From: a virus
Taxonomy: Duplodnaviria; Heunggongvirae; Uroviricota; Caudoviricetes
DNA length: 44,333 nucleotides
IMG/VR virus record: IMGVR_UViG_2909246061_000002
Coordinates: 1-44,333 of that record
Reading direction: 5' to 3' (one strand)
In this document: positions 3,882 to 26,668 of the stretch, one piece after another
Position numbering within the stretch: the first letter of the stretch is position 1
Layout: every line of letters starts with the position of its first letter
Notes under the pieces: model-generated
Told to the model about the DNA's origin: nothing
What the model saw: only the letters and a program-made list of their open reading frames with translations
Database searches by the model: none
Position numbers and translations under genes: made by a program

Positions 3882-4558
3882 GCTGCGTTTTCCTTAATTT
3901 GATGAACATTATTGATGCCGTAGTAATCACAAACAGTGGCATCGACGAAAGAGAGATCGTTATCAATCTCATTGGAGTCAAACATTCCCATTGGGGATTT
4001 AACAGTGTCTGCACCGTTGTTTTTTGTGGTGAAAAAGAACTGGTCATCACGGGTAAGGGTGCGAAGAACTATAGTAAACATGCCTTCGACAGTGATTTTC
4101 TCGTCCAGCATTTTGCCGATAGTTTTCATTTTCACGCGCCCCATAGGGGTTTCTTCGGTGTGTGCAAGAAAATAGACTCTCAGGTCATCAGGTGCATCCT
4201 GTGCAGCCTTAATCACCTCCCATGCGTGGCGGCCTATCTCAGTAAATTTATCAAACGATTTTTCTTCTGAGCGGCGCATAAACTCATTGCTCATCACATA
4301 CTGGAAGTCATCAACAATAACGATTCTTTTCCCGTATTCGTGAGCACGCTTAATTACGGCAACTATTACGTCCCATTTGTCAGTGGTAACTACGGTTCCT
4401 TTTTTTGCTCTGGCATCCCATGCCAGCCATTCTTTTGATTTAAATGGTAGCGGCTTGCCTATTGGTTTTATAAGTATTGCTTCCTCTGGATTGATATTTC
4501 TCATGCTGGTTGATTTTCCGGTGCCAGATTCACCGAGTATTAATGTCGCAGTTCCCAT
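3878..4558 (-). CDS. Sak4-like RecA-fold ATPase (single-strand annealing/recombination)
   Basis: 226 aa; Walker A GESGTGKS near N-terminus; Walker B-like IVIVDD; size and context typical of phage Sak4. Confidence 0.7.
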   Translation of the reverse strand: MGTATLILGESGTGKSTSMRNINPEEAILIKPIGKPLPFKSKEWLAWDARAKKGTVVTTDKWDVIVAVIKRAHEYGKRIVIVDDFQYVMSNEFMRRSEEKSFDKFTEIGRHAWEVIKAAQDAPDDLRVYFLAHTEETPMGRVKMKTIGKMLDEKITVEGMFTIVLRTLTRDDQFFFTTKNNGADTVKSPMGMFDSNEIDNDLSFVDATVCDYYGINNVHQIKENAA

Positions 4559-4566
4559 AATTTGCC

Positions 4567-4755
4567 TCAGAATGGTAATTCGGATGGGGAGGAAAGAAAC
4601 TCGCGCTCATTCATGCGCTCTCTTTGTGCCTGCCATAAACAAAGTTGTTTCTTTGATTTATCTCCCGCTTTACGCCAGTAACGAGCCTCAGCAATGTGAT
4701 ATTCTCTTTTTAATCGACTTAATTCTGGAGTTTTCGCCAGTTCTACCGGAATCAT
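4567..4755 (-). CDS. hypothetical small protein, 62 aa
   Basis: ATG at 4755 with GGAGG RBS; ATGA overlap with the upstream ORF stop. Confidence 0.4.
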   Translation of the reverse strand: MIPVELAKTPELSRLKREYHIAEARYWRKAGDKSKKQLCLWQAQRERMNEREFLSSPSELPF

Positions 4756-4955
4756 TTTGACCTCCATTTTCTGTAGGCTTCGATGGCCTCACGAAACATC
4801 TTTTCATCGCCAATAAAAGTGGCGATAGTGAATTTAGTCTGGATAGCCATAAGTGTTTTATCCATTTTTGGGAACTCCTGGCTGATTAAGTACGTCGATG
4901 AGTCGTTTCCATCCGTCACGTAATTTACGGGTGATTCGTTCAAGTAAAGATTCAT
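4752..4955 (-). CDS. hypothetical small protein (start uncertain; alternative ATG at 4865 with AGGAG RBS)
   Basis: ORF-track frame; stop overlaps downstream start. Confidence 0.3.
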   Translation of the reverse strand: MNLYLNESPVNYVTDGNDSSTYLISQEFPKMDKTLMAIQTKFTIATFIGDEKMFREAIEAYRKWRSK

Positions 4956-5027
4956 TTAATTGGAAGGCACCCATGCGAGCGCCTCCCGCGATTGCGTAAA
5001 TCATGGGTGGTTCCTTATGTTGGTTTA

Positions 5028-5996
5028 TTAGTAGGTTATTTTTGTTGCGAATACTTCGCCTTTTACGATGGCTGTTATGATATTTTTAGCAACATCTTCT
5101 GATGCGCCAACCTTGATAAGGTCAGCAAGTATTTTGTTATTTACTTCTTTCCGGTGAGCTTTATCCTTTGCTCTACGCTCTTCTTCGTCCTTGATTCTTT
5201 TTTCTTCTGCTATTCTGGCTTGCTCTTTTGCTTCAGCCTCGCGCCGGATTCGTTCAGCCTCCTCCTGTGCTTTTCGGCGTTCTGCTTCAATTGCCGCCTG
5301 CTTTTCTCTTTCAGCTCGTTCTGCTGCCTCTTTTGCTTCGCGCAGTGCTCGTTGCTCGGCTTCAATGCGTTCACGCTCTGCACGTTCCGCTGCGGCCTTA
5401 GCTTCTGCTTCTCGCCTTGCTGCTGCTTCAATTTCGGCTTTTGCCTTTGCTTCGGCTTCTGCTCTGGCTTTCTCTTCAGCTTCTCTTTTTAAGCGTTCTT
5501 CATGCTCTCGCTTTTCCTGCTCCGCTTTGAGTCTTGCCTCTTCTCTTTGGCGGTCAAATTCGCGATCCATCAAAATCGCTATTTCATGGTCAGACTCAAT
5601 TTGCTTTGCGAGAGCTTCAGCTGCTGCCTTAGCTTCTTCTTCGGCTTTAATCCGCGCCTGTTCTTCCTCATAATCAGTAAGAGGCTGGCGCGCCTTGGCT
5701 TTCAGTTCATCAAGGCGATCACGCACTGTCTTGCGGTTGGCATCAATTAGCTTTGGAATTTCCTTCAGTTCAGCAACAAGGTCTTTGCCAAGACCATCGA
5801 GATATGTTTTCGTCTGCGCAACTTTATACGCCAGAGAAGCGATCTCCTTTCTGCCCTTTGCCGTTGTGATATCAGGCACAAATGACATAACTTCACGTTC
5901 AACCTTTTGAAGGATTTCTTCAATCTGGTCGGCAGACTGAAATACAGTCATTGCATTTGCTTTTTCAATAACAACTAAATCTGTTACTTCACTCAT
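5028..5996 (-). CDS. coiled-coil E/A/K/R-rich phage protein (DUF1351-like), 322 aa
   Basis: ATG at 5996 with GGAGG RBS (the ORF-track start at 6050 is upstream of the RBS); long charged helical repeats; sits beside the Sak4 module. Confidence 0.6.
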   Translation of the reverse strand: MSEVTDLVVIEKANAMTVFQSADQIEEILQKVEREVMSFVPDITTAKGRKEIASLAYKVAQTKTYLDGLGKDLVAELKEIPKLIDANRKTVRDRLDELKAKARQPLTDYEEEQARIKAEEEAKAAAEALAKQIESDHEIAILMDREFDRQREEARLKAEQEKREHEERLKREAEEKARAEAEAKAKAEIEAAARREAEAKAAAERAERERIEAEQRALREAKEAAERAEREKQAAIEAERRKAQEEAERIRREAEAKEQARIAEEKRIKDEEERRAKDKAHRKEVNNKILADLIKVGASEDVAKNIITAIVKGEVFATKITY

Positions 5997-6169
5997 ATAT
6001 CCTCCGTCAAAAAAATTGCCCTCACACTGGAGGGCAAAGAAGATTTCCAATAATCAGAACAAGTCGGCTCCTGTTTAGTTACGAGCGACATTGCTCCGTG
6101 TATTCACTCGTTGGAATGAATACACAGTGCTGTGTTTATTCTGTTGTTAGTGCCAAAAATAAAGGCCGA

Positions 6170-6862
6170 CTATGCGGACTCGGAAGGAAGTCCAATCATC
6201 TTATTCAAATCTTCTACCCGTAAAGCAGGAAGTGCTGTACTTGCTTTATCTGCTTCTTTTGGTAGCAATTCTTTGCTTTCAGGCCAAACTTCAATAAGTC
6301 GCTTAACTGTTGTGACTGAGTTCAAAGCAGCCCATACATTTGATTCGATATCCTTTTTCTTGGCTTCAAGTTTTTGTTGCAATGCGCAGATTTCATCAAA
6401 CCTTTTTGTTATTTCGTGTTCTGCGTCAAACATGCATTTATCTTTGGTCGGAGTAGGGAGCAATATATCTTCGCCGTTGCCGTCTTTCCCATATGAAAGC
6501 CATCCAACCCTTCTGCCAGATACAGTCAGATAAATTGAAGTAGAACGAACATCGTATGAGTAAAATGAACATCCCATCTTTCCAAGTTCTTCACTTATAG
6601 CTACCAACTTGGATGATAACTGATCCACTTCCTCAGTTTTCTTTTTACCGCCAAACGCAATAACTCTGGCGTCAAGTGCAAGCTGGTTCTTTAACTTTGT
6701 TACTTCTTCAAGTTCAGTGAAAACCCCAGACTTAATTAAAGCGTTACGAGCGATTTCCTCTTTCATTCTCGTAGTTAAGCGGATTGATGACATATTAATT
6801 CCTCTCAAATAAGTGGCTTGCTGCCAAAACAATGAACCATCCGGAAATTCCAGATAGTTCAT
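6170..6862 (-). CDS. hypothetical early-left protein, 230 aa (alternative start 6793 with GAGAGGA RBS)
   Basis: Long ORF; ATGA overlap with upstream ORF at 6859..6862. Confidence 0.5.
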   Translation of the reverse strand: MNYLEFPDGSLFWQQATYLRGINMSSIRLTTRMKEEIARNALIKSGVFTELEEVTKLKNQLALDARVIAFGGKKKTEEVDQLSSKLVAISEELGKMGCSFYSYDVRSTSIYLTVSGRRVGWLSYGKDGNGEDILLPTPTKDKCMFDAEHEITKRFDEICALQQKLEAKKKDIESNVWAALNSVTTVKRLIEVWPESKELLPKEADKASTALPALRVEDLNKMIGLPSESA

Positions 6863-7086
6863 AATTCACTCTTCAATACTTCCAACTTACTAATCGCCGA
6901 TAGATATCCGCGCTGATAGGGCATCATCATTCCTTCGAGCTTGCCACTTCTTAACTCCTTCCTGAGCAATTGTATTGCTTGATCAATAACCTCTGCCTTA
7001 GCGTCCTTTATGGCTTGCTTGCGGGGCTTTGCTTTCTGCTTTGGCAGATTTCTCAAGCATGATGGAATGTATGTCTGATTCACCAC
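6859..7086 (-). CDS. hypothetical basic small protein
   Basis: ORF begins with GTG immediately after the N-like gene stop; weak RBS. Confidence 0.35.
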   Translation of the reverse strand: MVNQTYIPSCLRNLPKQKAKPRKQAIKDAKAEVIDQAIQLLRKELRSGKLEGMMMPYQRGYLSAISKLEVLKSEL

Positions 7087-7359
7087 TTACCTGGCTGTCA
7101 GTTGTTTTGATTTCCGGTATCCTGCCGCGTAAATGGCTACGTTCGGAAGACAAGTTGAACCTTCATATTTTCTGGTCAACGTTGTCAGAGTTATCACTTC
7201 TGCTCTCATTGCTGGTTTGCGCTTGCATTGCAAGACCACTCGTGAAGGGGTTGGCCTGTGTAGCTTGTCAGAGCTGATCGCCTCCTGACTTTGCAGATTT
7301 GCACGACGAGCTCTACGGCGAGAAGCTGCGGTTCCTTTAAATTCTGTTTTTCTGGACAT
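7087..7359 (-). CDS. N-like transcription antiterminator (arginine-rich motif), 90 aa
   Basis: ATG at 7359 with GGGAGG RBS; N-terminal RRRARRA arginine-rich motif; C-terminal YAAGYRKSKQLTAR resembles what I recall of P22 gp24; directly downstream of a boxA/boxB nut site. Confidence 0.7.
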   Translation of the reverse strand: MSRKTEFKGTAASRRRARRANLQSQEAISSDKLHRPTPSRVVLQCKRKPAMRAEVITLTTLTRKYEGSTCLPNVAIYAAGYRKSKQLTAR

Positions 7360-7814: not shown

Positions 7815-8000
7815 TTACAGAGCAAAGAGATCACGCATTAGGTTGCTGTTCATCTGGTGGTTGAATTGATACGGCTCCAGTTCTTTTTTGATCTCGTTCA
7901 GGTGCTGTTCCGCTTTTCTTGCCAGATTGCGACTTTCTTGGATCTGGCTTTCCAACATTTTGTTGAGAATTTCCATCTCCGGTTGCAGATTCTTCGGCAT
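7815..8000 (-). CDS. small helical protein, 61 aa, overlapping the 3' end of the protease-like gene in another frame
   Basis: ATG at 8000 with AAGAGG RBS 9 nt upstream; protein-like helical sequence; frame opens only 42 nt upstream. Confidence 0.5.
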   Translation of the reverse strand: MPKNLQPEMEILNKMLESQIQESRNLARKAEQHLNEIKKELEPYQFNHQMNSNLMRDLFAL

Positions 8001-8835
8001 TAGTATTGTCCTCTTTATCTTGTGTAGTAAGAGGGAAATCCATCACCCTTGGTTTTCCAAACGTTGGGATTTCACCACTATGAATCTTATCACAGAAAAA
8101 ATTATCGAGTATTTCTGTTATACCTTTAGGACATTCAACACACTTGAAAAGTTCCTTGGCTTCTTTTCTGTCGATAACAAATCCATGTGAAGGATACGAA
8201 GCGATGAGTTTGCTTAACGCCCCTTCTTTTAGACTACTTGGCTTGTCTGCTAACCGTTGACCATAAGTGATAGCAATGCTCATCGCACGCTGATGCTCAC
8301 CAAGTTTTATTGGATCTATCTGAGCAGCCATGGGGGCTATCAATGCCTCTGTAAGTCTGGTTGCGATGTCAGCAGATATTTTAGTGCTTATCTGGTTTTC
8401 GTATTTTATCTGAACAAGGTATGAGTTAAACGCTGAAATAGAGCGCTCCTTCAGTGCATCGAGAGCTGTCATAATGGCTAAACCAGAACTCATCTCACCT
8501 ATTTCATCGTTTTTTTTCAGTTGGATATCTAATGGCCCGAGCTCACCCATGTCACCGATAACAAGTTTATTCGCAGCTATGGCTATTAGTGTACCAGCAC
8601 TTTTGCACGGCCCAACAACTAAAAGTGTTACCGTTTCATAATAGTGCTGGAGAGCCCTACCTATACGATAACCAGCATTAGGATCACCGCCATAAGTAGC
8701 AACACAGAAGATAACATTCTTTTTTAATTCATTTTGTGACTTACGCTTCTTGATTTTATTGGTTAGATCAAGATAACCATCACGATGAATATCGCCTATA
8801 TACACATAAACATCATTATTTTCAATAGTATTCAT
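7831..8835 (-). CDS. Clp-fold (ClpP/SppA-like, SDH-type) serine protease-like protein, 334 aa
   Basis: ClpP/SppA-like motif GDPNAGYRIGRALQ...VVGPCKSAGTLIAIAANKLVIGDMGELG with candidate nucleophile Ser; low-complexity C-terminal tail; AT-rich gene 166 bp downstream of cI on the same strand. Confidence 0.65.
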   Translation of the reverse strand: MNTIENNDVYVYIGDIHRDGYLDLTNKIKKRKSQNELKKNVIFCVATYGGDPNAGYRIGRALQHYYETVTLLVVGPCKSAGTLIAIAANKLVIGDMGELGPLDIQLKKNDEIGEMSSGLAIMTALDALKERSISAFNSYLVQIKYENQISTKISADIATRLTEALIAPMAAQIDPIKLGEHQRAMSIAITYGQRLADKPSSLKEGALSKLIASYPSHGFVIDRKEAKELFKCVECPKGITEILDNFFCDKIHSGEIPTFGKPRVMDFPLTTQDKEDNTNAEESATGDGNSQQNVGKPDPRKSQSGKKSGTAPERDQKRTGAVSIQPPDEQQPNA

Positions 8836-13180: not shown

Positions 13181-13387
13181 GTGGCTGAGTTAATTTTCTC
13201 TGCATTGAGGATTCTCGGTGCTATGTGGATGGTGGCGACGTTCATTGTTGTTGCCAGCAGTTTTATCCGGTTGGTAGGTGAAGGTAAAGACCTGGTGGGT
13301 GTGCTTTTCGGTAGCATTTTCCTGTGGGTGATTATCGGTGTTGTGCCTATCGCTGTAGCAAAAATGGCGTGGCGTTTTGTTAGTTGA
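13181..13387 (+). CDS. small hydrophobic (two-TM) protein, 68 aa
   Basis: GTG start with GGAGGG RBS; strongly hydrophobic translation. Confidence 0.45.
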   Translation: MAELIFSALRILGAMWMVATFIVVASSFIRLVGEGKDLVGVLFGSIFLWVIIGVVPIAVAKMAWRFVS

Positions 13388-13394
13388 GGTGACA

Positions 13395-13841
13395 ATGAAG
13401 CAAATATACATGCTTCGCAACGAAGCAATCAGAAACAACGCCATAGACGCAATACTCTCACTTCCGATCGACGACAAGTCACCTCACGAAGTCCACGTTA
13501 AAGAACCAAAGCGGAGCAATCCTCAAAACCGCCTTATGTGGGCGTTATTGCAGGACGTATCACGTCAGGTGCTTTGGCATGGACAGAGACTTGCGCCGGA
13601 GGACTGGAAAGACCTGTTCACTGCCCTGTGGCTTAAGACCAAAAAACTGGAGCAAAGAAGTGTGCCTGGCATCGACGGTGGCGTTGTCATGCTTGGCGTG
13701 CGCACCAGCAAAATGCGAAAGGCCAGCATGACTGAGCTTATCGAAATCATGTTCTGGTTCGGATCAGAGCGAAACGTGCGGTGGAGTGATGACTCCCGGC
13801 GAGAGTATGAATGGTCACAACGAAAAGGGAGGGTTGAATGA
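13395..13841 (+). CDS. ninB: NinB-like recombination protein
   Basis: ATG at 13395 with GAGGTG RBS; similarity to lambda NinB as I recall it (SNPQNRLMWALLQDVSRQVLWHGQRL). Confidence 0.8.
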   Translation: MKQIYMLRNEAIRNNAIDAILSLPIDDKSPHEVHVKEPKRSNPQNRLMWALLQDVSRQVLWHGQRLAPEDWKDLFTALWLKTKKLEQRSVPGIDGGVVMLGVRTSKMRKASMTELIEIMFWFGSERNVRWSDDSRREYEWSQRKGRVE

Positions 13842-14371
13842 TTAAGCATAAATCAGAAACACCAAAAGAAGTTAGAGACTGCTGGCAAACGCCGCTTTGG
13901 CTTTTTGATGCACTGGATATTGAGTTTGGATTCTGGCTGGATTCGGCAGCGAGCGACAAAAATGCTCTGTGCGCTCACTGGTTAACTGAGGCCGACGACG
14001 CGCTAAATTCTGAGTGGGTAAGCCACGGTGCAATCTGGAATAACCCACCGTACAGCAATATCAGGCCGTGGGTGGAAAAAGCTGCTGAGCAGTGCATACA
14101 ACAGCGACAGACGGTAGTTATGCTTGTGCCAGAGGATATGTCAGTCGGATGGTTCAGCAAGGCTCTGGAGAGTGTCGACGAAGTTCGCATTATCACTGAT
14201 GGACGGATTAATTTTATCGAACCATCGACAGGGCTGGAGAAGAAGGGAAACAGCAAAGGCTCCATGCTGCTGATTTGGCGACCGTTCATCAGTCCTCGAC
14301 GGATGTTTACTACCGTATCCAAAGCGGCATTGATGGCGATCGGGCAGGGCGTCAGGAGGGCTGCATGGTAA
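13838..14371 (+). CDS. phage Dam-like DNA N6-adenine methyltransferase
   Basis: 177 aa; NPPY catalytic motif (WNNPPYS); ATGA overlap with the ninB stop. Confidence 0.8.
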   Translation: MIKHKSETPKEVRDCWQTPLWLFDALDIEFGFWLDSAASDKNALCAHWLTEADDALNSEWVSHGAIWNNPPYSNIRPWVEKAAEQCIQQRQTVVMLVPEDMSVGWFSKALESVDEVRIITDGRINFIEPSTGLEKKGNSKGSMLLIWRPFISPRRMFTTVSKAALMAIGQGVRRAAW

Positions 14372-15237
14372 ATGTCGTTAGTTTCTCAGGTGGCAGGACG
14401 TCAGCATATTTGCTCTGGCTAATGGAGCAAAAGCGACAGTCAGGTAAAGACGTGCATTACGTTTTCATGGATACAGGTTGTGAACATCCAATGACATATC
14501 GGTTTGTCAGGGAAGTTGTGAAGTTCTGGGATATACCGCTCACCGTATTGCAGGTTGATATCAACCCGGAGCTTGGACAGCCAAATGGTTATACGGTATG
14601 GGAACCAAAGGATATTCAGACGCGAATGCCTGTTCTGAAGCCATTTATCGATATGGTAAAGAAATATGGCACTCCATACGTCGGCGGCGCGTTCTGCACT
14701 GACAGATTAAAACTCGTTCCCTTCACCAAATACTGTGATGACCATTTCGGGCGAGGGAATTACACCACGTGGATTGGCATCAGAGCTGATGAACCGAAGC
14801 GGCTAAAGCCAAAGCCTGGAATCAGATATCTTGCTGAACTGTCAGACTTTGAGAAGGAAGATATCCTCGCATGGTGGAAGCAACAACCATTCGATTTGCA
14901 AATACCGGAACATCTCGGTAACTGCATATTCTGCATAAAAAAATCAACGCAAAAAATCGGACTTGCCTGCAAAGATGAGGAGGGATTGCAGCGTGTTTTT
15001 AATGAGGTCATCACGGGATCCCATGTGCGTGACGGACATCGGGAAACGCCAAAGGAGATTATGTACCGAGGAAGAATGTCGCTGGACGGTATCGCGAAAA
15101 TGTATTCAGAAAATGATTATCAAGCCCTGTATCAGGACATGGTACGAGCTAAAAGATTCGATACCGGCTCTTGTTCTGAGTCATGCGAAATATTTGGAGG
15201 GCAGCTTGATTTCGACTTCGGGAGGGAAGCTGCATGA
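14365..15237 (+). CDS. PAPS-reductase-family (PP-loop ATP pyrophosphatase superfamily) protein
   Basis: ATG at 14365 with AGGAGGG RBS; PP-loop motif [12 protein letters not shown]; overlaps the methyltransferase stop. Confidence 0.75.
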
Positions 15238-15407
15238 TGCGATGTTATCGGTGCGGTGAATGCAAAGAAGATAACCGCTTCCGACCAAATCAACCTTACT
15301 GGAATCGATGGTGTCTCCGGTGTGAAAGAACACCAACAGGGGTGTTACCACTACCGCAGGAAAAGGAGGACGTGTGGCGAGACAGCGACGAAGTATCACC
15401 GACATAA
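15234..15407 (+). CDS. NinD-like small Cys-rich protein, 57 aa (below ORF-track cutoff)
   Basis: ATGA overlap with the preceding stop; translation [16 protein letters not shown]... with CxxC pairs. Confidence 0.5.
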
Positions 15408-15556
15408 TCTGCGAAAACTGCAAATACCTTCCAACGAAACGCACCAGAAATAAACCCAAGCCAATCCCAAAAGAATCTGACGTAAAAACCTTCAACTACA
15501 CGGCTCACCTGTGGGATATCCGGTGGCTAAGACGTCGTGCGAGGAAAACAAGGTGA
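15374..15556 (+). CDS. ninE: NinE-like protein
   Basis: GTG start with AAGGAGG RBS; translation [21 protein letters not shown]... matches lambda NinE as I recall it. Confidence 0.75.
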
Positions 15557-15663
15557 TTGACCAAAATCGAAGTTACGAACAAGAAAGCGTCGAGCGAGCT
15601 TTAACGTGCGCTAACTGCGGTCAGAAGCTGCATGTGCTGGAAGTTCACGTGTGTGAGCGTTGT

Positions 15664-16202
15664 ATATATGAATGCTTAAATATGGTGGAACATAATGAGA
15701 AATATAAGCAACATAGACGAATTAAGAAATAAATTATCATATGATGATGTTTTAGGTGTACTTAGATGGAAAGTGTCTCCTTCTAATAATGTTAAGGTTG
15801 GCAGTGTTGCTGGTTACATTAGGAGTGATGGTTATAGGATGTTAACTATCGATGGTGTAATTACTTATGCTCACCACGTTATATGGATGATAAATAATGG
15901 TGAGATTCCATTAGGGTATAAAATTGATCATATAAATGGAGTAAGGTCAGATAATAGGCTATCTAATCTTCGATTGGTTACACACCAACAGAATGCACAG
16001 AACCAAAAGAGAAAAATAACCAATTCGTCAGGAGTGACTGGAGTATATTTCAATAAAGAGAGATGTAAGTGGATTGCGAATATATGCGTAGATGGGCGCA
16101 CCAAATATCTTGGAATATTTGCTAGCATCATTGACGCTATTGCAGAAAGGAAGAGGGCAGAAAAAGAACTGGGTTTTCATGAAAACCATGGCAGACCATA
16201 AC
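15664..16202 (+). mobile_element. free-standing HNH homing-endonuclease gene insertion
   Basis: AT-rich 539-bp segment precisely between the two Cys codons of ninF; carries one HNH-AP2 ORF. Confidence 0.7.
15695..16201 (+). CDS. HNH homing endonuclease with AP2-like DNA-binding domain
   Basis: 168 aa; HNH motif IDHINGVRSDNRLSNLRLVTHQQN; C-terminal AP2-like SGVTGVYFNKERCKWIANICVDGRTKYLGIF. Confidence 0.8.
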   Translation: MRNISNIDELRNKLSYDDVLGVLRWKVSPSNNVKVGSVAGYIRSDGYRMLTIDGVITYAHHVIWMINNGEIPLGYKIDHINGVRSDNRLSNLRLVTHQQNAQNQKRKITNSSGVTGVYFNKERCKWIANICVDGRTKYLGIFASIIDAIAERKRAEKELGFHENHGRP

Positions 16203-16909: not shown

Positions 16910-17428
16910 ATGGGCATAAGAGAACTAAACCTCACCAAAGAACAGCACGAGTGGCTGAATTGCTGGCTTGAACTGTGGGGCGCATGGGTTTATTCAGGTC
17001 GTCTGGAAAAGCGCATGAGCAGCGTAATAGCGAAGTTCATGGAGAGCGTAGAGCCGGGAAGAGTTATGACAAGGCCAATGTGCAATGATGATGATGGAAT
17101 GTTGATTTCTCAGGTCGTCGATTCCGTCATGTACATTGACAAGAAAGCCTTTGGCATCCTCCTCAGCTACTACGCTCATGGTTCATCTAAGCGAGCAATT
17201 GCATCCTACTATCACGCGACTGCAAAGCCACGCAAGATGTGTGGACGTGGTGGCGAGGGATGGAGAAAACCTTCACTGGCAACCTGTAGAAACGAAATTG
17301 ACGACATCCTGAAAGCGTCGTTATTTGTTTTGTACCAGCCAATGCAAAATGCTTTCAAAATGCGTAAACGTGTTGAGAAAGTTAAGCATGTTGCTGTTAA
17401 AAGCCTTGACATGCAATTATCCATTTAG
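16910..17428 (+). CDS. Q-like late antiterminator (start may instead be GTG 16853)
   Basis: Position before the lysis genes; motifs WGAWVYSG and RPMCNDDDGML resemble Q proteins of the phage 82/21 type as I recall them. Confidence 0.65.
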   Translation: MGIRELNLTKEQHEWLNCWLELWGAWVYSGRLEKRMSSVIAKFMESVEPGRVMTRPMCNDDDGMLISQVVDSVMYIDKKAFGILLSYYAHGSSKRAIASYYHATAKPRKMCGRGGEGWRKPSLATCRNEIDDILKASLFVLYQPMQNAFKMRKRVEKVKHVAVKSLDMQLSI

Positions 17429-17435
17429 CCATAAT
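17406..17435 (+). promoter_or_regulatory. candidate late promoter PR' (TTGACA, 18-bp spacer, CATAAT)
   Basis: Near-consensus sigma70 hexamers at the 3' end of the Q gene, where lambdoid late promoters lie. Confidence 0.4.
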
Positions 17436-17445
17436 TAGAAGGTAA

Positions 17446-17487
17446 GCTGCCGTTAGTGACTCTTAAGTTGCAACGGTGGCTTTTTTT
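17446..17487 (+). terminator. candidate tR'-like hairpin with T7 tract downstream of the late promoter
   Basis: Stem GCTGCCGTT/AACGGTGGC followed by TTTTTTT. Confidence 0.35.
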
Positions 17488-17937
17488 GTTTGCACAACAG
17501 GTAAGAGCATTGAACCCGCAGACCTCGCGGAATTGGTGAAAGGTGCCGCGCAGTGCTCTTATCGTTGTGGTGAAGCTCAATGGCGAGCTAGCAGATAGGC
17601 GACAGTGAAAATACTAGTCATGTAGCTGACCGCCGCGCGTACTGCAATCGGCAGCGCACCGATGGAAGCCGGTTCGATTCCGGCCGCCACAACCCAAACT
17701 GAGCCGTAGCCACTGGCTATCCTGAATTCATCAGTGATAGTTACGCTGCGGCCTTCTACACATGACCTTCGTGAAAGCGGGTGGCATGAGGTTGCGCTAA
17801 CAACCTCCTGCCGTTTTGCCCGTGCATATCGGTCACGAACAAATCTGATTACTAAACACAGTAGCCTGGATTTGTTCTATCAGTAACCGACCATATTCCT
17901 AATTAAATAGAGCAAATCCCCTTATTGGGGGTAAGAC

Positions 17938-25447: not shown

Positions 25448-26668
25448 ATGAAATATTTTTTCAATACCAGGCTGGGGGAAACCCGCTATCAGCTGGCTGA
25501 CGGCTCGCTGCTGTGTAAAGACGTGCCGATAGGTCGAACGGGTAAGCAGCTCTATGGTGCTGATGACCTGCCAAAACTGAAACCCGATAAGTTCGGTGAA
25601 ATAGTCGTCACGCGTTCTCCTGAGCAGGTATTCCATCCCGCCACGCTTGCCTCATTCGAAGGAATGAGTATCACGATCCTGCATCCTGAAGATGAAAACG
25701 GGAATGTGCGGCTGGTAAATCCCGAGAACTGGAAAGAGCTTGCTGTCGGGCACCTCCAGAATGTCCGGCGCGGGACGGGTGAGCAGTCTGATTTGATGCT
25801 GGCTGACCTTATCGTCAAAGACGAAAACGCCATTCAGCTTATCGAAGATGGCCTGCGCGAAGTGTCGTGCGGCTATGACGCGGAGTATGAGCAGACCGAG
25901 CCAGGTAAAGCCGGGCAGGTCGATATTACCGGAAACCATGTGGCTCTTGTCCCTAAAGGCAGAGCCGGAAATCGTTGTGCAATTGGAGACAGAGACACAA
26001 TGGCAAATCAAAAGAAAAGCTGGTGGACCCGCATGCGCACGGCCATCAAAACGGGTGACGCTGACACCATGAACGAACTGGTGGAGTCGGCTCCCGCATC
26101 GGTTACAGGAGATGAGGGGGATTTGCCGCAGGGCGTTAATCTCAACATCAACCTGTCCCCGCAGCAACCGCTACCGGACAAAGCACCAGAGATGGGCGGA
26201 GGTCCAACCGGCGACAGTGGTGATGACCTCAAAACATTACTGAAAGCCCTGCTGGCTAAGCTGGAAGGAAATGCCACGGGCGATAACGATAATAAGCCTG
26301 ACGATAATCCGACCGGTGACGGCGAGGACGATGAAGAGGAAACCACGATTACTGGTGACTCAGCCTGGCGTGCCGAAGTTATCGTTCCGGGTATTGATCT
26401 GAGCCGTAAGATGAAACCGACCGCGTTCAAACGTGAGGTTCTGGCTTCTGCTGACAAAACGCTGGTTCGCCAGATAGTCGGTGATGCGGATATCCGCAAA
26501 TTGCCGAAACAATCGGTCGACATGGCGTTTAATGCCGTGTCTGAGATTGCCAAAGGGCGAAACACCCGCGCCACCACCGGCGATGCACAGCGCCCAAATA
26601 TGGGCATGACCAGTATCGCTTTCCTGAACAAACAAAACGCTGAATTCTGGGCAAACCGTAAAGGGTAA
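25448..26668 (+). CDS. prohead scaffold/core protein
   Basis: 406 aa with acidic low-complexity C-terminal half; position before the capsid genes. Confidence 0.5.
   Translation: MKYFFNTRLGETRYQLADGSLLCKDVPIGRTGKQLYGADDLPKLKPDKFGEIVVTRSPEQVFHPATLASFEGMSITILHPEDENGNVRLVNPENWKELAVGHLQNVRRGTGEQSDLMLADLIVKDENAIQLIEDGLREVSCGYDAEYEQTEPGKAGQVDITGNHVALVPKGRAGNRCAIGDRDTMANQKKSWWTRMRTAIKTGDADTMNELVESAPASVTGDEGDLPQGVNLNINLSPQQPLPDKAPEMGGGPTGDSGDDLKTLLKALLAKLEGNATGDNDNKPDDNPTGDGEDDEEETTITGDSAWRAEVIVPGIDLSRKMKPTAFKREVLASADKTLVRQIVGDADIRKLPKQSVDMAFNAVSEIAKGRNTRATTGDAQRPNMGMTSIAFLNKQNAEFWANRKG

Follow-up and report, generated by a model that had tools for sequence, protein, structure and literature searches.

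Dam beside lambda NinC in a phage nin region: most likely an anti-restriction DNA-modification module

A described counterpart of the locus presented here is a segment of Vibrio phage 44E38.1. When p0018 and p0019 were moved into a sensitive phage, that phage plated fully on a Dnd+ host, whereas a Dam-only sister phage lacked the anti-Dnd phenotype of the fusion region (Piel et al., 10.1101/2021.05.05.442762). The phenotype is that of p0018 and p0019 moved together (10.1101/2021.05.05.442762), and the Dnd-escape result is also cited in PMC13551039. A literature search found no mechanism for this PAPS/Dam anti-Dnd module.

The second point of comparison is phage lambda, for which the nin region is dispensable for growth in laboratory hosts (PMC10695390). 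In published work, no interaction partners were obtained for lambda NinC, and our literature search on its role yielded non-essentiality, the absence of found interactions, and nothing further. In E. coli DH10B, three Dnd systems still restrict lambda by a factor of 3 to 60 (EOP 0.016–0.3), values that were obtained with no ninC-minus control alongside and with a stock of unstated nin genotype (PMC10470545). T1 Dam makes G6mATC, and DndFGH is not blocked by Dam methylation alone (PMC10470545); therefore, a second activity would be needed. In addition, a PAPS-reductase-type domain is required in all known phosphorothioation systems (PMC12914056).

We analyzed a stretch of 44,333 nucleotides from a Caudoviricetes virus, referred to as the window. 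The gene order is NinB, Dam, NinC, NinD, NinE, NinF, HNH, NinG, and Q, which agrees with the nin-region placement proposed in an earlier sequence-only reading of this DNA. The features used below are as follows.

13377..13841, + strand: NinB/Orf recombination mediator (Pfam NinB, 1.1e-48); likely true start ATG 13395
13838..14371, + strand: Dam-family N6-adenine DNA methyltransferase, 177 aa (PF05869, 8.4e-66; TIGR01712, 4e-79; phrog_111)
14042..14053, + strand: catalytic motif IV of Dam, N-P-P-Y, residues 69-72 (direct sequence reading)
14354..14359, + strand: AGGAGG, Shine-Dalgarno of ninC, within the dam 3' end (sequence)
14365..14371, + strand: ATGGTAA, 7-nt overlap of the ninC start and the dam stop (junction alignment)
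14365..15237, + strand: NinC (lambda Nin290), PP-loop protein of the PAPS-reductase superfamily, ATG to TGA, 290 aa (PF01507, 7.7e-9)
14386..14403, + strand: PP-loop SGGRTS, NinC residues 8-13, ATP pyrophosphatase signature (sequence, alignment)
14695..14697, + strand: NinC Cys111, invariant, in GGAFCTDR; candidate metal or Fe-S ligand (homologue alignment)
14734-14736, + strand: NinC C124, invariant (homologue alignment)
14923..14934, + strand: NinC C187-x-F-C190, in GNCxFCxKK, invariant (alignment; the motif is present in all fusions)
15172..15186, + strand: NinC C270-SES-C274, invariant (alignment); the C-terminal segment is of low confidence (pLDDT) and probably mobile
15234..15407, + strand: NinD (Pfam NinD, 1.8e-41); ATGA overlap between its start codon and the stop of ninC
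15374..15556, + strand: NinE (Pfam NinE, 7.2e-45)

The region is 96% identical in nucleotide sequence to Salmonella phage vB_SosS_Oslo over 99% of a 2.2-kb query, and lambda shares 99.6% identity with the part from NinC to NinE. These close matches in Oslo and lambda indicate that the dam and ninC ORFs are real genes rather than chance ORFs. NinB shares 90% amino acid identity with Oslo NinB and 44% with lambda NinB. As in lambda, NinC has NinD and NinE downstream and an ATGA-type overlap at its start, whereas lambda NinC directly follows NinB and in the window the Dam gene lies in between. The order NinB-Dam-NinC-NinD-NinE is the same in Oslo (gp64-gp65, DNA methyltransferase and NinC) and in 17 E. 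coli prophages.

For the methyltransferase, the earlier call of an N6-adenine enzyme is upheld by the PF05869 and TIGR01712 matches and by NPPY at residues 69-72; the TIGR01712 model (phage_N6A_met; NCBIfam, equivalog level) scored 263.9 bits, where the cut-off is 97. The protein is 96% identical to Oslo gp64 and 97% identical to its counterpart in Stx phages and Sf101, and Dam of the T1-like phages Tls and JMPW2 is 33-35% identical to it. In the Stx phages and mEp213 among the matches listed, the gene after dam is ninE, and ninC does not adjoin dam. By analogy with T1 Dam, the window enzyme would be expected to methylate GATC.

For the second gene, the coordinates, the length of 290 aa, the SGGRTS PP-loop, and the PF01507 match all agree with the earlier assignment to the PAPS-reductase superfamily. 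The protein had been left without a name, and it is lambda NinC (lambdap64): 287 of 290 residues (98.97%) are identical, the differences being I2V, R25Q, and A26S. The similarity to the lambda NinC family (PHROG 424/33262; lambda Nin290) extends over the full length, and the family motifs SGGRx[12 protein letters not shown] and GNCxFCx[10 protein letters not shown], which are invariant or nearly so across 28 homologues, are all present. The program-made ORF list had placed the start at TTG 14275; since all 27 aligned homologues open with M-x-x-VVSFSGG, ATG 14365 is the real start.

The PF01507 match lies above the curated cut-off, and the AF2 model of NinC has a Rossmann-like PP-loop fold, with block-mean pLDDT values of 71 for residues 261-270 and 53 for residues 271-280. 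In the alignment of 28 homologues, S8, G9, G10, R11, and S13 of the loop are invariant, T12 is kept in at least 90%, and six cysteines are invariant. The loop sequence is compatible with hydrolysis of ATP to AMP and PPi, and the conserved cysteines, together with the fold neighbours, make NinC a candidate for carrying an Fe-S centre.

Comparison with 44E38.1 connects this protein to an anti-Dnd phenotype. The N-terminal domain of p0018 (P0071, PHROG 33262) is 59% identical to the window protein over 97% of NinC, with matching PP-loop and Cys motifs, and its C-terminal Dam domain (PF05869) is 37% identical to the window Dam. The p0018 gene lies near DUF1367 and NinG genes, and NinG is present in the window too. 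As in the Vibrio module, the two domains are encoded together in the window, on the same strand and overlapping; however, they form no single polypeptide here but two ORFs in different frames. Whereas p0018 is one NinC-Dam polypeptide with NCPY as motif IV, the window has two genes in the Dam-NinC order, as in the fusions P0121 and P0125. The anti-Dnd phenotype is that of the Vibrio segment, to which the window locus is likened by sequence.

Fusions of this kind recur within the NinC family. The NinC-Dam order was found in P0071, P0084, P0122, P0127, P0130, and P0149, the Dam-NinC order in P0121 and P0125, and a fusion with a D12-class methyltransferase (PF02086) in P0128. Among 120 near-full-length representatives at 50% identity, seven are methyltransferase fusions, and no other extension of at least 100 residues was seen. 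All nine fusions examined retain SGGR[TS]S and both Cys motifs, and eight of the nine have NPPY, NPPF, or DPPY as motif IV, P0071 having NCPY. P0125 joins the end of Dam to the beginning of NinC without any linker, as would be expected if an overlapping Dam>NinC pair of the kind present in the window were read through. The fusions in both orders and with two methyltransferase families, together with the anti-Dnd homologue, make a functional link between NinC and adenine methyltransferases well supported.

Taken together, these findings make anti-restriction by DNA modification the most likely role of the dam-ninC pair, rather than sulfur metabolism. The best overall explanation, to which we assign a probability of roughly 0.5, is that Dam was recombined beside ninC and that the pair is a split fusion module which modifies DNA and serves Dnd escape. 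In this explanation, the delayed-early nin region of a lambdoid phage or prophage would have gained a phage Dam gene by recombination exactly at the ninB|ninC gene boundary. Within the PAPS-reductase clade, NinC would be a PP-loop ATP pyrophosphatase rich in cysteine, and Dam and NinC would be the split, two-gene form of the PAPS-reductase/Dam fusions of other phages. The anti-restriction or DNA-modification role suggested by the sequence-only reading thus remains the best-supported one, given the fusions and the anti-Dnd homologue, whereas nothing here shows the two steps that it had proposed.

The module would work as follows. The nin genes would be transcribed from pR after N antitermination, as the lambda nin genes are, and every gene is preceded by a Shine-Dalgarno of its own, its start overlapping the stop of the gene before. 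Dam would then bind replicating phage DNA and methylate GATC adenines, as judged from its homologues. NinC may work on this DNA together with an adenine methyltransferase, which would be the phage's own where present and possibly host Dam in lambda. Using ATP (adenylation with PPi release) and its cysteines or a metal or Fe-S centre, NinC would introduce a second protective change. Phage DNA may then escape Dnd-type modification-dependent restriction (DndFGH), as the 59%-identical homologue suggests.

The distribution of the two genes bears on the explanation that competes best with this one. The contiguous dam-ninC pair was found in 17 of 5426 complete E. coli genomes (at least 80% of the 1400-nt query covered; 98.9-99.4% nucleotide identity in the 12 rows listed), whereas 1774 carry one or the other gene. 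Among isolated phages, the full arrangement occurs only in Oslo, out of 462 matching records. A neighbourhood survey comprised 168 distinct viral loci, representing 33 NinC lineages. A Dam or D12 methyltransferase is immediately adjacent on either side, or fused, in 10 of the 33 lineages, and lies 1.4-2 kb away in two further lineages. A C5 methyltransferase upstream in one lineage and an MT-A70 methyltransferase downstream in another fall outside the lineage mapping. When counted by loci, 29 have a Dam or D12 methyltransferase within 4 kb, and it is adjacent or fused in 27 of these. The adjacency occurs both upstream and downstream of NinC (L109 and L110, respectively) and also outside lambda-type contexts. 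Counting against the link, no phage methyltransferase lies near NinC in lambda or in 28 of 30 lambda-type loci, and a 60-locus NinC lineage has none within 4 kb. The Dam-NinC pairing is not obligate. In lambdoid phages, moreover, NinC and Dam share the slot after ninB, and adjacency there is therefore partly expected.

Two further phages stand as single cases. Vibrio phage K97 has both NinC and Dam genes, far apart from each other, and in Stx2a phage phi349 an MT-A70 methyltransferase lies 8 kb from a NinC-like gene.

The junction itself does not distinguish a functional pair. The 7-nt overlap ATGGTAA at 14365-14371 is present as first described, in place of the 4-nt ATGA overlap of Oslo and other relatives. 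It derives from ATGA by a single A>G at 14368, which changes TGA to TGG, so that Dam gains one Trp, and puts V in place of I2 in NinC; dam consequently ends at TAA 14369-14371, in a different frame from ninC. All compared relatives (lambda, Oslo, L015, L083, and L037) have GCATGA at this junction. The NinB/Dam and NinC/NinD overlaps are likewise ATGA, as are those joining all neighbouring nin genes, and GGAGGG elements similar to the Shine-Dalgarno of ninC precede dam and ninD. Translational coupling, which the earlier reading had taken as a sign of shared function, is therefore unspecific, and we rejected it as functional evidence. The proposed link rests instead on the recurrent fusions and on the published anti-Dnd phenotype of a fusion homologue.

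These observations leave a doubtful but real chance that the two are independent accessory genes sharing a nin slot, Dam methylating GATC in the ordinary way, to the benefit of anti-restriction or regulation, NinC being unrelated to it, and their adjacency arising from mosaic recombination. Such an origin fits the homology to lambda, which begins only 8 nt upstream of the ninC ATG, the junction motif GGGC[A/T]GCATGA common to the 3' ends of lambda ninB and dam, the ATGA overlaps throughout the neighbouring nin genes, and the rarity of the pair in E. coli genomes and isolated phages. However, independence fits poorly with fusions in both orders, with a second methyltransferase family of unrelated sequence, and with the retention of both catalytic motif sets. 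It is also at odds with an adjacency that recurs across NinC lineages, on both sides and outside lambda-type contexts, and with an anti-Dnd phenotype that the fusion region has and the Dam-only sister phage lacks.

The relation of NinC to known phosphorothioation enzymes bears on how the module may act. As to the nearest characterized PP-loop family, which the sequence-only reading had left to profile searches, SspD gave the best match among defence-system profiles (PADLOC; 1.3e-14, compared with 1.8e-5 for BrxP and 3e-3 for DndC), but this match covers only the N-terminal PP-loop half of NinC (residues 4-147; profile positions 3-122 of 277). The NCBIfam DndC model TIGR03183 scored 12.7 bits against a cut-off of 290. 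NinC shares the PP-loop PAPS-reductase core with SspD, DndC, and BrxP, and all are cysteine-rich. In contrast, the phosphorothioation systems contain a DndD/SspC/BrxC NTPase and a DNA-binding or nicking partner, neither of which adjoins ninC, and unlike those systems ninC has an adenine methyltransferase as its partner. The window neighbours of ninC (NinB, Dam, NinD, and NinE) include no DndE or SspB and no desulfurase. Across the 33 lineages, ninC is surrounded by nin genes, recombination genes, and methyltransferase genes, among which there is no DndD/SspC/BrxC-type NTPase.

The partial likeness and the missing partners would also suit a NinC that counters defence at the level of proteins or metabolites rather than by modifying phage DNA, the methyltransferase only tethering it to DNA. 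Examples would be a DndC/SspD decoy that poisons or sequesters Dnd/Ssp components or IscS persulfide, or adenylation of a host factor. The likeness to SspD, DndC, and BrxP is confined to the PP-loop half, NinC lacks the NTPase and nickase partners of every known phosphorothioation system, and other anti-Dnd proteins act on host proteins, such as the JSS1_004 kinase (PMC12345140). Strict conservation of the PP-loop and the six cysteines in at least 28 homologues, on the other hand, favors catalysis over mimicry, and the fact that NinC is fused to DNA methyltransferases that look active suggests that it acts on DNA. We consider action at the protein level improbable.

A role in modifying RNA or the nucleotide pool, such as tRNA thiolation, a lysidine-like reaction (TtuA, NcsA, TilS), or a QueC-like step, is very unlikely. 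The motif DTG..E.P.TY and the G-x-R-x-D-E Arg loop place NinC in the PAPS-reductase clade, no 7-deazaguanine or tRNA-modification genes lie nearby, and a DNA adenine methyltransferase is the only large fusion partner found. A BFVD fold search with NinC gave no hint of its function: one viral homologue matched strongly, and the remaining matches, to PAPS reductases and QueC, were weak.

NinC aligns with sulfate-assimilation enzymes only in its N-terminal part. The CysH models TIGR00434 and PRK02090 scored 13 bits (cut-off 165) and 16.6 (cut-off 154), respectively. A sequence search of solved structures found just weak N-terminal matches to CysH and APS reductase, with no close NinC relative and no DndC or SspD structure. 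NinC is 18-21% identical to these reductases (PDB 1sur, 6vpu, and 2goy), with a TM of about 0.4-0.5; the alignable part comprises residues ~4-80, up to 145 by profile, and the C-terminal 130 residues have no counterpart in them. Although the Pfam PAPS_reduct match, the nearest solved structures, and many annotations and some papers on phage homologues would make NinC a true PAPS or APS reductase, an auxiliary gene boosting host sulfate assimilation, this is scarcely credible and was rejected on the motifs and the alignment extent, since NinC has the canonical SGGRTS where CysH has a degenerate SSSFG loop without GG, lacks the catalytic Cys motif ECG[LI]H (ECGLH) of CysH, aligns with it only in part, is fused to DNA methyltransferases, and is surrounded by DNA recombination and methyltransferase genes with no sulfur-assimilation genes. 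The earlier suggestion that the pair does not serve sulfur metabolism is therefore supported.

For the preferred explanation, that of a split module modifying DNA, the chemistry can be proposed with low confidence as a DndC/SspD-like insertion of sulfur into the backbone (phosphorothioation) at or near the methyltransferase target sites. More tentatively than the module itself, NinC may be the catalytic half of a minimal phage DNA modification system in which the methyltransferase, phage or host Dam, is the targeting subunit; the chance of this is rather small. At or next to the sites that the methyltransferase targets, NinC would then make a second modification that depends on ATP and on cysteine/Fe-S, either phosphorothioation that needs no DndD/SspC-type NTPase or a thiolation or amination of bases not described so far. 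If this is true, temperate phages would have a means of passing PT-sensing or modification-dependent defences.

Phage "PAPS reductases" are routinely misread as sulfur-metabolism auxiliary genes, and few lambda genes besides ninC still lack a function. The locus described here ties lambda NinC, by 59% identity, to a PAPS/Dam fusion that aids Dnd escape of a Vibrio phage, and adenine methyltransferases are the only large fusion partner found here for the NinC family. Together, these two ties give the orphan ninC a simple hypothesis that can be tested in the phage system with the best-developed genetics. If the hypothesis is wrong, the dam-ninC pair is an ordinary mosaic junction; if NinC does modify DNA with a methyltransferase, it would represent a new and very compact way of protecting DNA by modification, and temperate enterobacterial phages, Stx phages included, would have a counter-defence of a new class.

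The pair lies in the gene order CI-type repressor, O-like protein, DnaB-like helicase, NinB, Dam, NinC, NinD, NinE, NinF, HNH endonuclease, NinG and Q. The locus belongs to a lambdoid (pro)phage and is its nin region, the placement already given from the sequence alone. The features discussed here are as follows, in window coordinates.

7831-8835, - strand: 334-aa ORF with weak ClpP/SDH-protease-like matches, adjoining the CI-type (Peptidase_S24) repressor
13181-13387: hydrophobic 68-aa ORF between the DnaB-like helicase and NinB
13838-14371, + strand: Dam, 177 aa
14042-14053, + strand: NPPY motif (Dam residues 69-72), read from the sequence
14354-14359: AGGAGG Shine-Dalgarno upstream of the ninC ATG
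14365-14371: 7-nt overlap ATGGTAA (ninC ATG, 14365-14367; dam TAA, 14369-14371)
14365-15237, + strand: NinC, 290 aa
15695-16201: HNH_3 endonuclease ORF between NinF and NinG (Pfam, 1.2e-19)

The Dam ORF was recognised both by Pfam Dam (PF05869; 8.4e-66) and by an NCBIfam equivalog, TIGR01712 ("phage N-6-adenine-methyltransferase"; 4e-79, 264 bits, cut-off 97). Together with NPPY at residues 69-72, these matches confirm the N6-adenine methyltransferase proposed in the sequence-only reading. The protein is 33-35% identical to T1-like Dams (Tls, JMPW2); T1 Dam makes G6mATC (PMC10470545). The whole window contains 133 GATC sites versus ~173 expected from base composition, at face value a mild under-representation.

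For the second protein, the proposed PAPS-reductase family was likewise found (PAPS_reduct PF01507, 7.7e-9; SGGRTS loop in 290 aa), and the protein, left without a known role in that reading, can be named. Beginning 8 nt 5' of the ninC start codon, the sequence matches phage lambda 41073-42276 at 99.6% nt identity, and the protein is lambda NinC (Nin290; 287/290 identical, with the changes I2V, R25Q and A26S), although lambda NinC is itself a functional orphan. The nin region is not needed for plaque formation (PMC10695390), and a lambda interaction map shows zero partners for NinC (PMC3224144). A longer ORF of the mechanical list, starting at TTG 14275, was rejected as the gene because M-x-x-VVSFSGG is the start in every homologue.

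The 7-nt overlap was read directly in the window, but the translational coupling that had been taken to argue for a joint function is, by itself, of little meaning. ATGA overlaps occur at the NinB/Dam (13838-13841) and NinC/NinD (15234-15237) joints and are usual along this nin region. The joint is GCATGA in every relative examined (lambda NinB/NinC, Oslo and the viral loci L015, L083 and L037), and the window differs by a single A>G at 14368, through which the TGA stop becomes TGG, Dam gains a Trp and ends at the following in-frame TAA, and NinC acquires the I2V substitution.

The arrangement is mosaic. In lambda, NinB is directly followed by NinC, and in the listed Stx phages and mEp213 the same Dam is followed by NinE, without NinC beside Dam. 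Among 462 matching phage records, the order NinB-Dam-NinC was found only in Salmonella phage vB_SosS_Oslo. At least one of the genes was present in 1774 of the 5426 complete E. coli genomes, but the contiguous pair in only 17. A second NinC allele (P0096-type, gene ~4001-4846, 56% identical overall) occurs in viral contigs L083, L085, L088, L090-L092, L094 and L098. Its first 38 residues match lambda-type NinC at 35/38 positions and are identical to those of a 98%-identical homologue (P0001); the same Dam 3' end lies upstream, and the sequences diverge after this stretch, which indicates a recombination breakpoint within ninC with the Dam/NinC joint kept. Dam is directly upstream of this allele in 8 of 19 distinct loci.

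Other genes of the window were also inspected. The HNH_3 ORF looks like a mobile homing-type insertion; it overlaps the 3' end of the NinF ORF (region 15511-16201), whose 73-aa product has the NinF domain at residues 32-56 only. The HNH and NinG pair recurs in L015 at 100% aa identity, and L248, a related E. coli prophage, has its annotated HNH endonuclease gene between NinB and Dam instead. The strongly hydrophobic 13181-13387 ORF had no Pfam match and could encode a small membrane protein. The 7831-8835 ORF, in whose position L248 has a gene annotated "Clp protease/crotonase-like domain-containing protein", is a possible accessory or defence gene of the immunity region.

In the homologue search, some single polypeptides contained both NinC and methyltransferase domains. 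A profile search over 1.84 billion representatives gave 2989 members of the family (E<=1e-3). Of the best 150 of these, 120 were near full length, and seven of the 120 were fused to adenine methyltransferases: six to Dam-family PF05869 domains, in the order Dam-NinC (P0121, P0125) or NinC-Dam (P0122, P0127, P0130, P0149), and one to a D12-class PF02086 domain (P0128). No other extension of >=100 residues was present in these 120. SGGR[TS]S, CxFC and CxxxC (CSESC in most) are kept in all fusions, and motif IV is NPPY, NPPF or DPPY in 8/9. In P0125, the Dam C-terminus joins the NinC N-terminus directly (...KRKELAVI|HVISLSGGRSS), which would be the expected product of read-through across an overlapping pair like that of the window.

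The 247 fetched viral loci were reduced to 168 distinct ones, which represent 33 NinC lineages (~90% identity). A Dam or D12 methyltransferase was directly upstream, directly downstream or fused in 10/33 lineages, and 1.4-2 kb away in two more (raw counts, kinship ignored). Scans of one representative per lineage added an upstream C5 methyltransferase and a downstream MT-A70 adenine methyltransferase, the lineage of each not being assigned. Where a Dam or D12 gene lay <4 kb from ninC, it was adjacent or fused in 27/29 distinct loci. With the methyltransferase upstream (L110) or downstream (L109), both fusion orders and two methyltransferase families, there are several independent arrangements, even on counts that ignore shared ancestry.

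The link is not obligate: no methyltransferase was found within 4 kb in 28/30 lambda-type loci or in a 60-locus lineage of other context (DUF968, DUF2303 or YfbR-like neighbours), of which at least one Stx2a phage has an MT-A70-type enzyme 8 kb away. In Stx2a phages, as seen in vB_EcoP_phi349 (PV189405.1), the 79%-identical NinC-like gene (25706-26584) lies outside the nin region. It follows exo, RecT and SSB in the leftward early operon, and 8 kb further in the same operon comes a 208-aa methyltransferase with DPPW (17234-17860), MT-A70-like by motif alone; a type II R-M pair adjoins cI. That independent genes share one slot is the strongest alternative, possible although hardly favoured.

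One fusion, P0071, is p0018 of Vibrio phage 44E38.1; its NinC domain shares 59% identity with the NinC of the window, 97% of which is covered, and its Dam domain 37% with the Dam of the window. Whereas the window has the split form in the order Dam-NinC, p0018 is one polypeptide, and its motif IV is NCPY (residues 370-373), unlike the other fusions examined. According to Piel et al. (bioRxiv 10.1101/2021.05.05.442762), what sets phages that infect Dnd-carrying Vibrio crassostreae apart from their sister phages is the PAPS/Dam fusion and a small gene, p0019; the sister phage has a 96%-identical Dam alone. Once p0018 and p0019 had been transferred to it together, the sister phage plated fully (10^11 PFU/ml) on a retron-lacking Dnd+ host. 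The result has since been cited as Dnd evasion promoted by a phage PAPS reductase (PMC13551039); our literature search found no published mechanism for the module. In the region 4414-7167 of Vibrio phage 44E38.1, the fusion gene has a DUF6475 gene on one side, with an overlap between the stop of that gene and the start of the fusion, and on the other side DUF1367 and then NinG. The DUF1367 gene might be p0019; a gene of this family is found after NinC in one enterobacterial lineage, too. Interference with defence at the protein or metabolite level is an improbable explanation.

The AF2 model of NinC from 28 homologues was confident (pLDDT 87.9, pTM 0.86). Of the defence-system models, SspD gave the best match to NinC (1.3e-14, confined to the N-terminal half), followed by BrxP (1.8e-5) and DndC (3e-3); NinC scores far under the cysH and DndC family cut-offs. 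Six Cys are invariant among aligned homologues (C111, C124, C187, C190, C270 and C274). PAPS reductases have a mobile C-terminal Cys tail, and by analogy the low-confidence segment holding C270/C274 could form a mobile tail that takes part in catalysis or carries a persulfide. We conclude that NinC, which looks competent for catalysis, is a PP-loop ATP pyrophosphatase of a separate family within the PAPS-reductase clade, and not an enzyme of sulfate assimilation. An RNA or nucleotide substrate is very unlikely. True sulfur metabolism, already disfavoured in the sequence-only reading, is the least credible alternative, since only about the first 80 residues align with CysH, the loop is SGGRTS rather than SSSFG, ECGLH is absent and the cysH score is far below cut-off.

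Four things are established: the identity of both genes, the conservation of their catalytic motifs, repeated fusion or adjacency with adenine methyltransferases, and the anti-Dnd phenotype of a homologous segment. We estimate a probability of about 0.5 that Dam and NinC form a functional anti-restriction module. NinC would act on phage DNA together with the adenine methyltransferase and install or support a second, ATP-dependent protective change, with phosphorothioation as the leading candidate, so that the phage would escape Dnd-type restriction. GATC methylation alone gives no protection from GATC-specific DndFGH (PMC10470545), and thus something besides methylation is needed. All four established phosphorothioation systems require a PAPS-reductase-domain protein and an NTPase (PMC12914056). 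Counting against the proposed mechanism are the lack of a DndD, SspC or BrxC-like partner for NinC, the restriction of the SspD/DndC likeness to the PP-loop half, and the Vibrio experiment being a plating test of p0018 and p0019 as one transferred segment. Lambda also counts against it: despite its NinC, three Dnd systems restrict it 3- to 60-fold, in an experiment with no ninC-minus control and the nin genotype of the stock unstated (PMC10470545). Within the module, a truly novel chemistry of DNA modification, directed to its sites by the methyltransferase, is a rather doubtful prospect.

Both genes were in the GenBank annotation, the arrangement is present in phage Oslo, the anti-Dnd role of the fusion is published, and NCBI already has a name for it ("Dam methyltransferase with PAPS reductase domain"; PHROG 33262). 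New here are the recognition of the "unknown" protein as lambda NinC, of the pair in the window as a split fusion form in the order Dam-NinC, and of adenine methyltransferases as the sole large fusion partner found for the NinC family. The orphan lambda ninC thereby gains a concrete, readily tested hypothesis.
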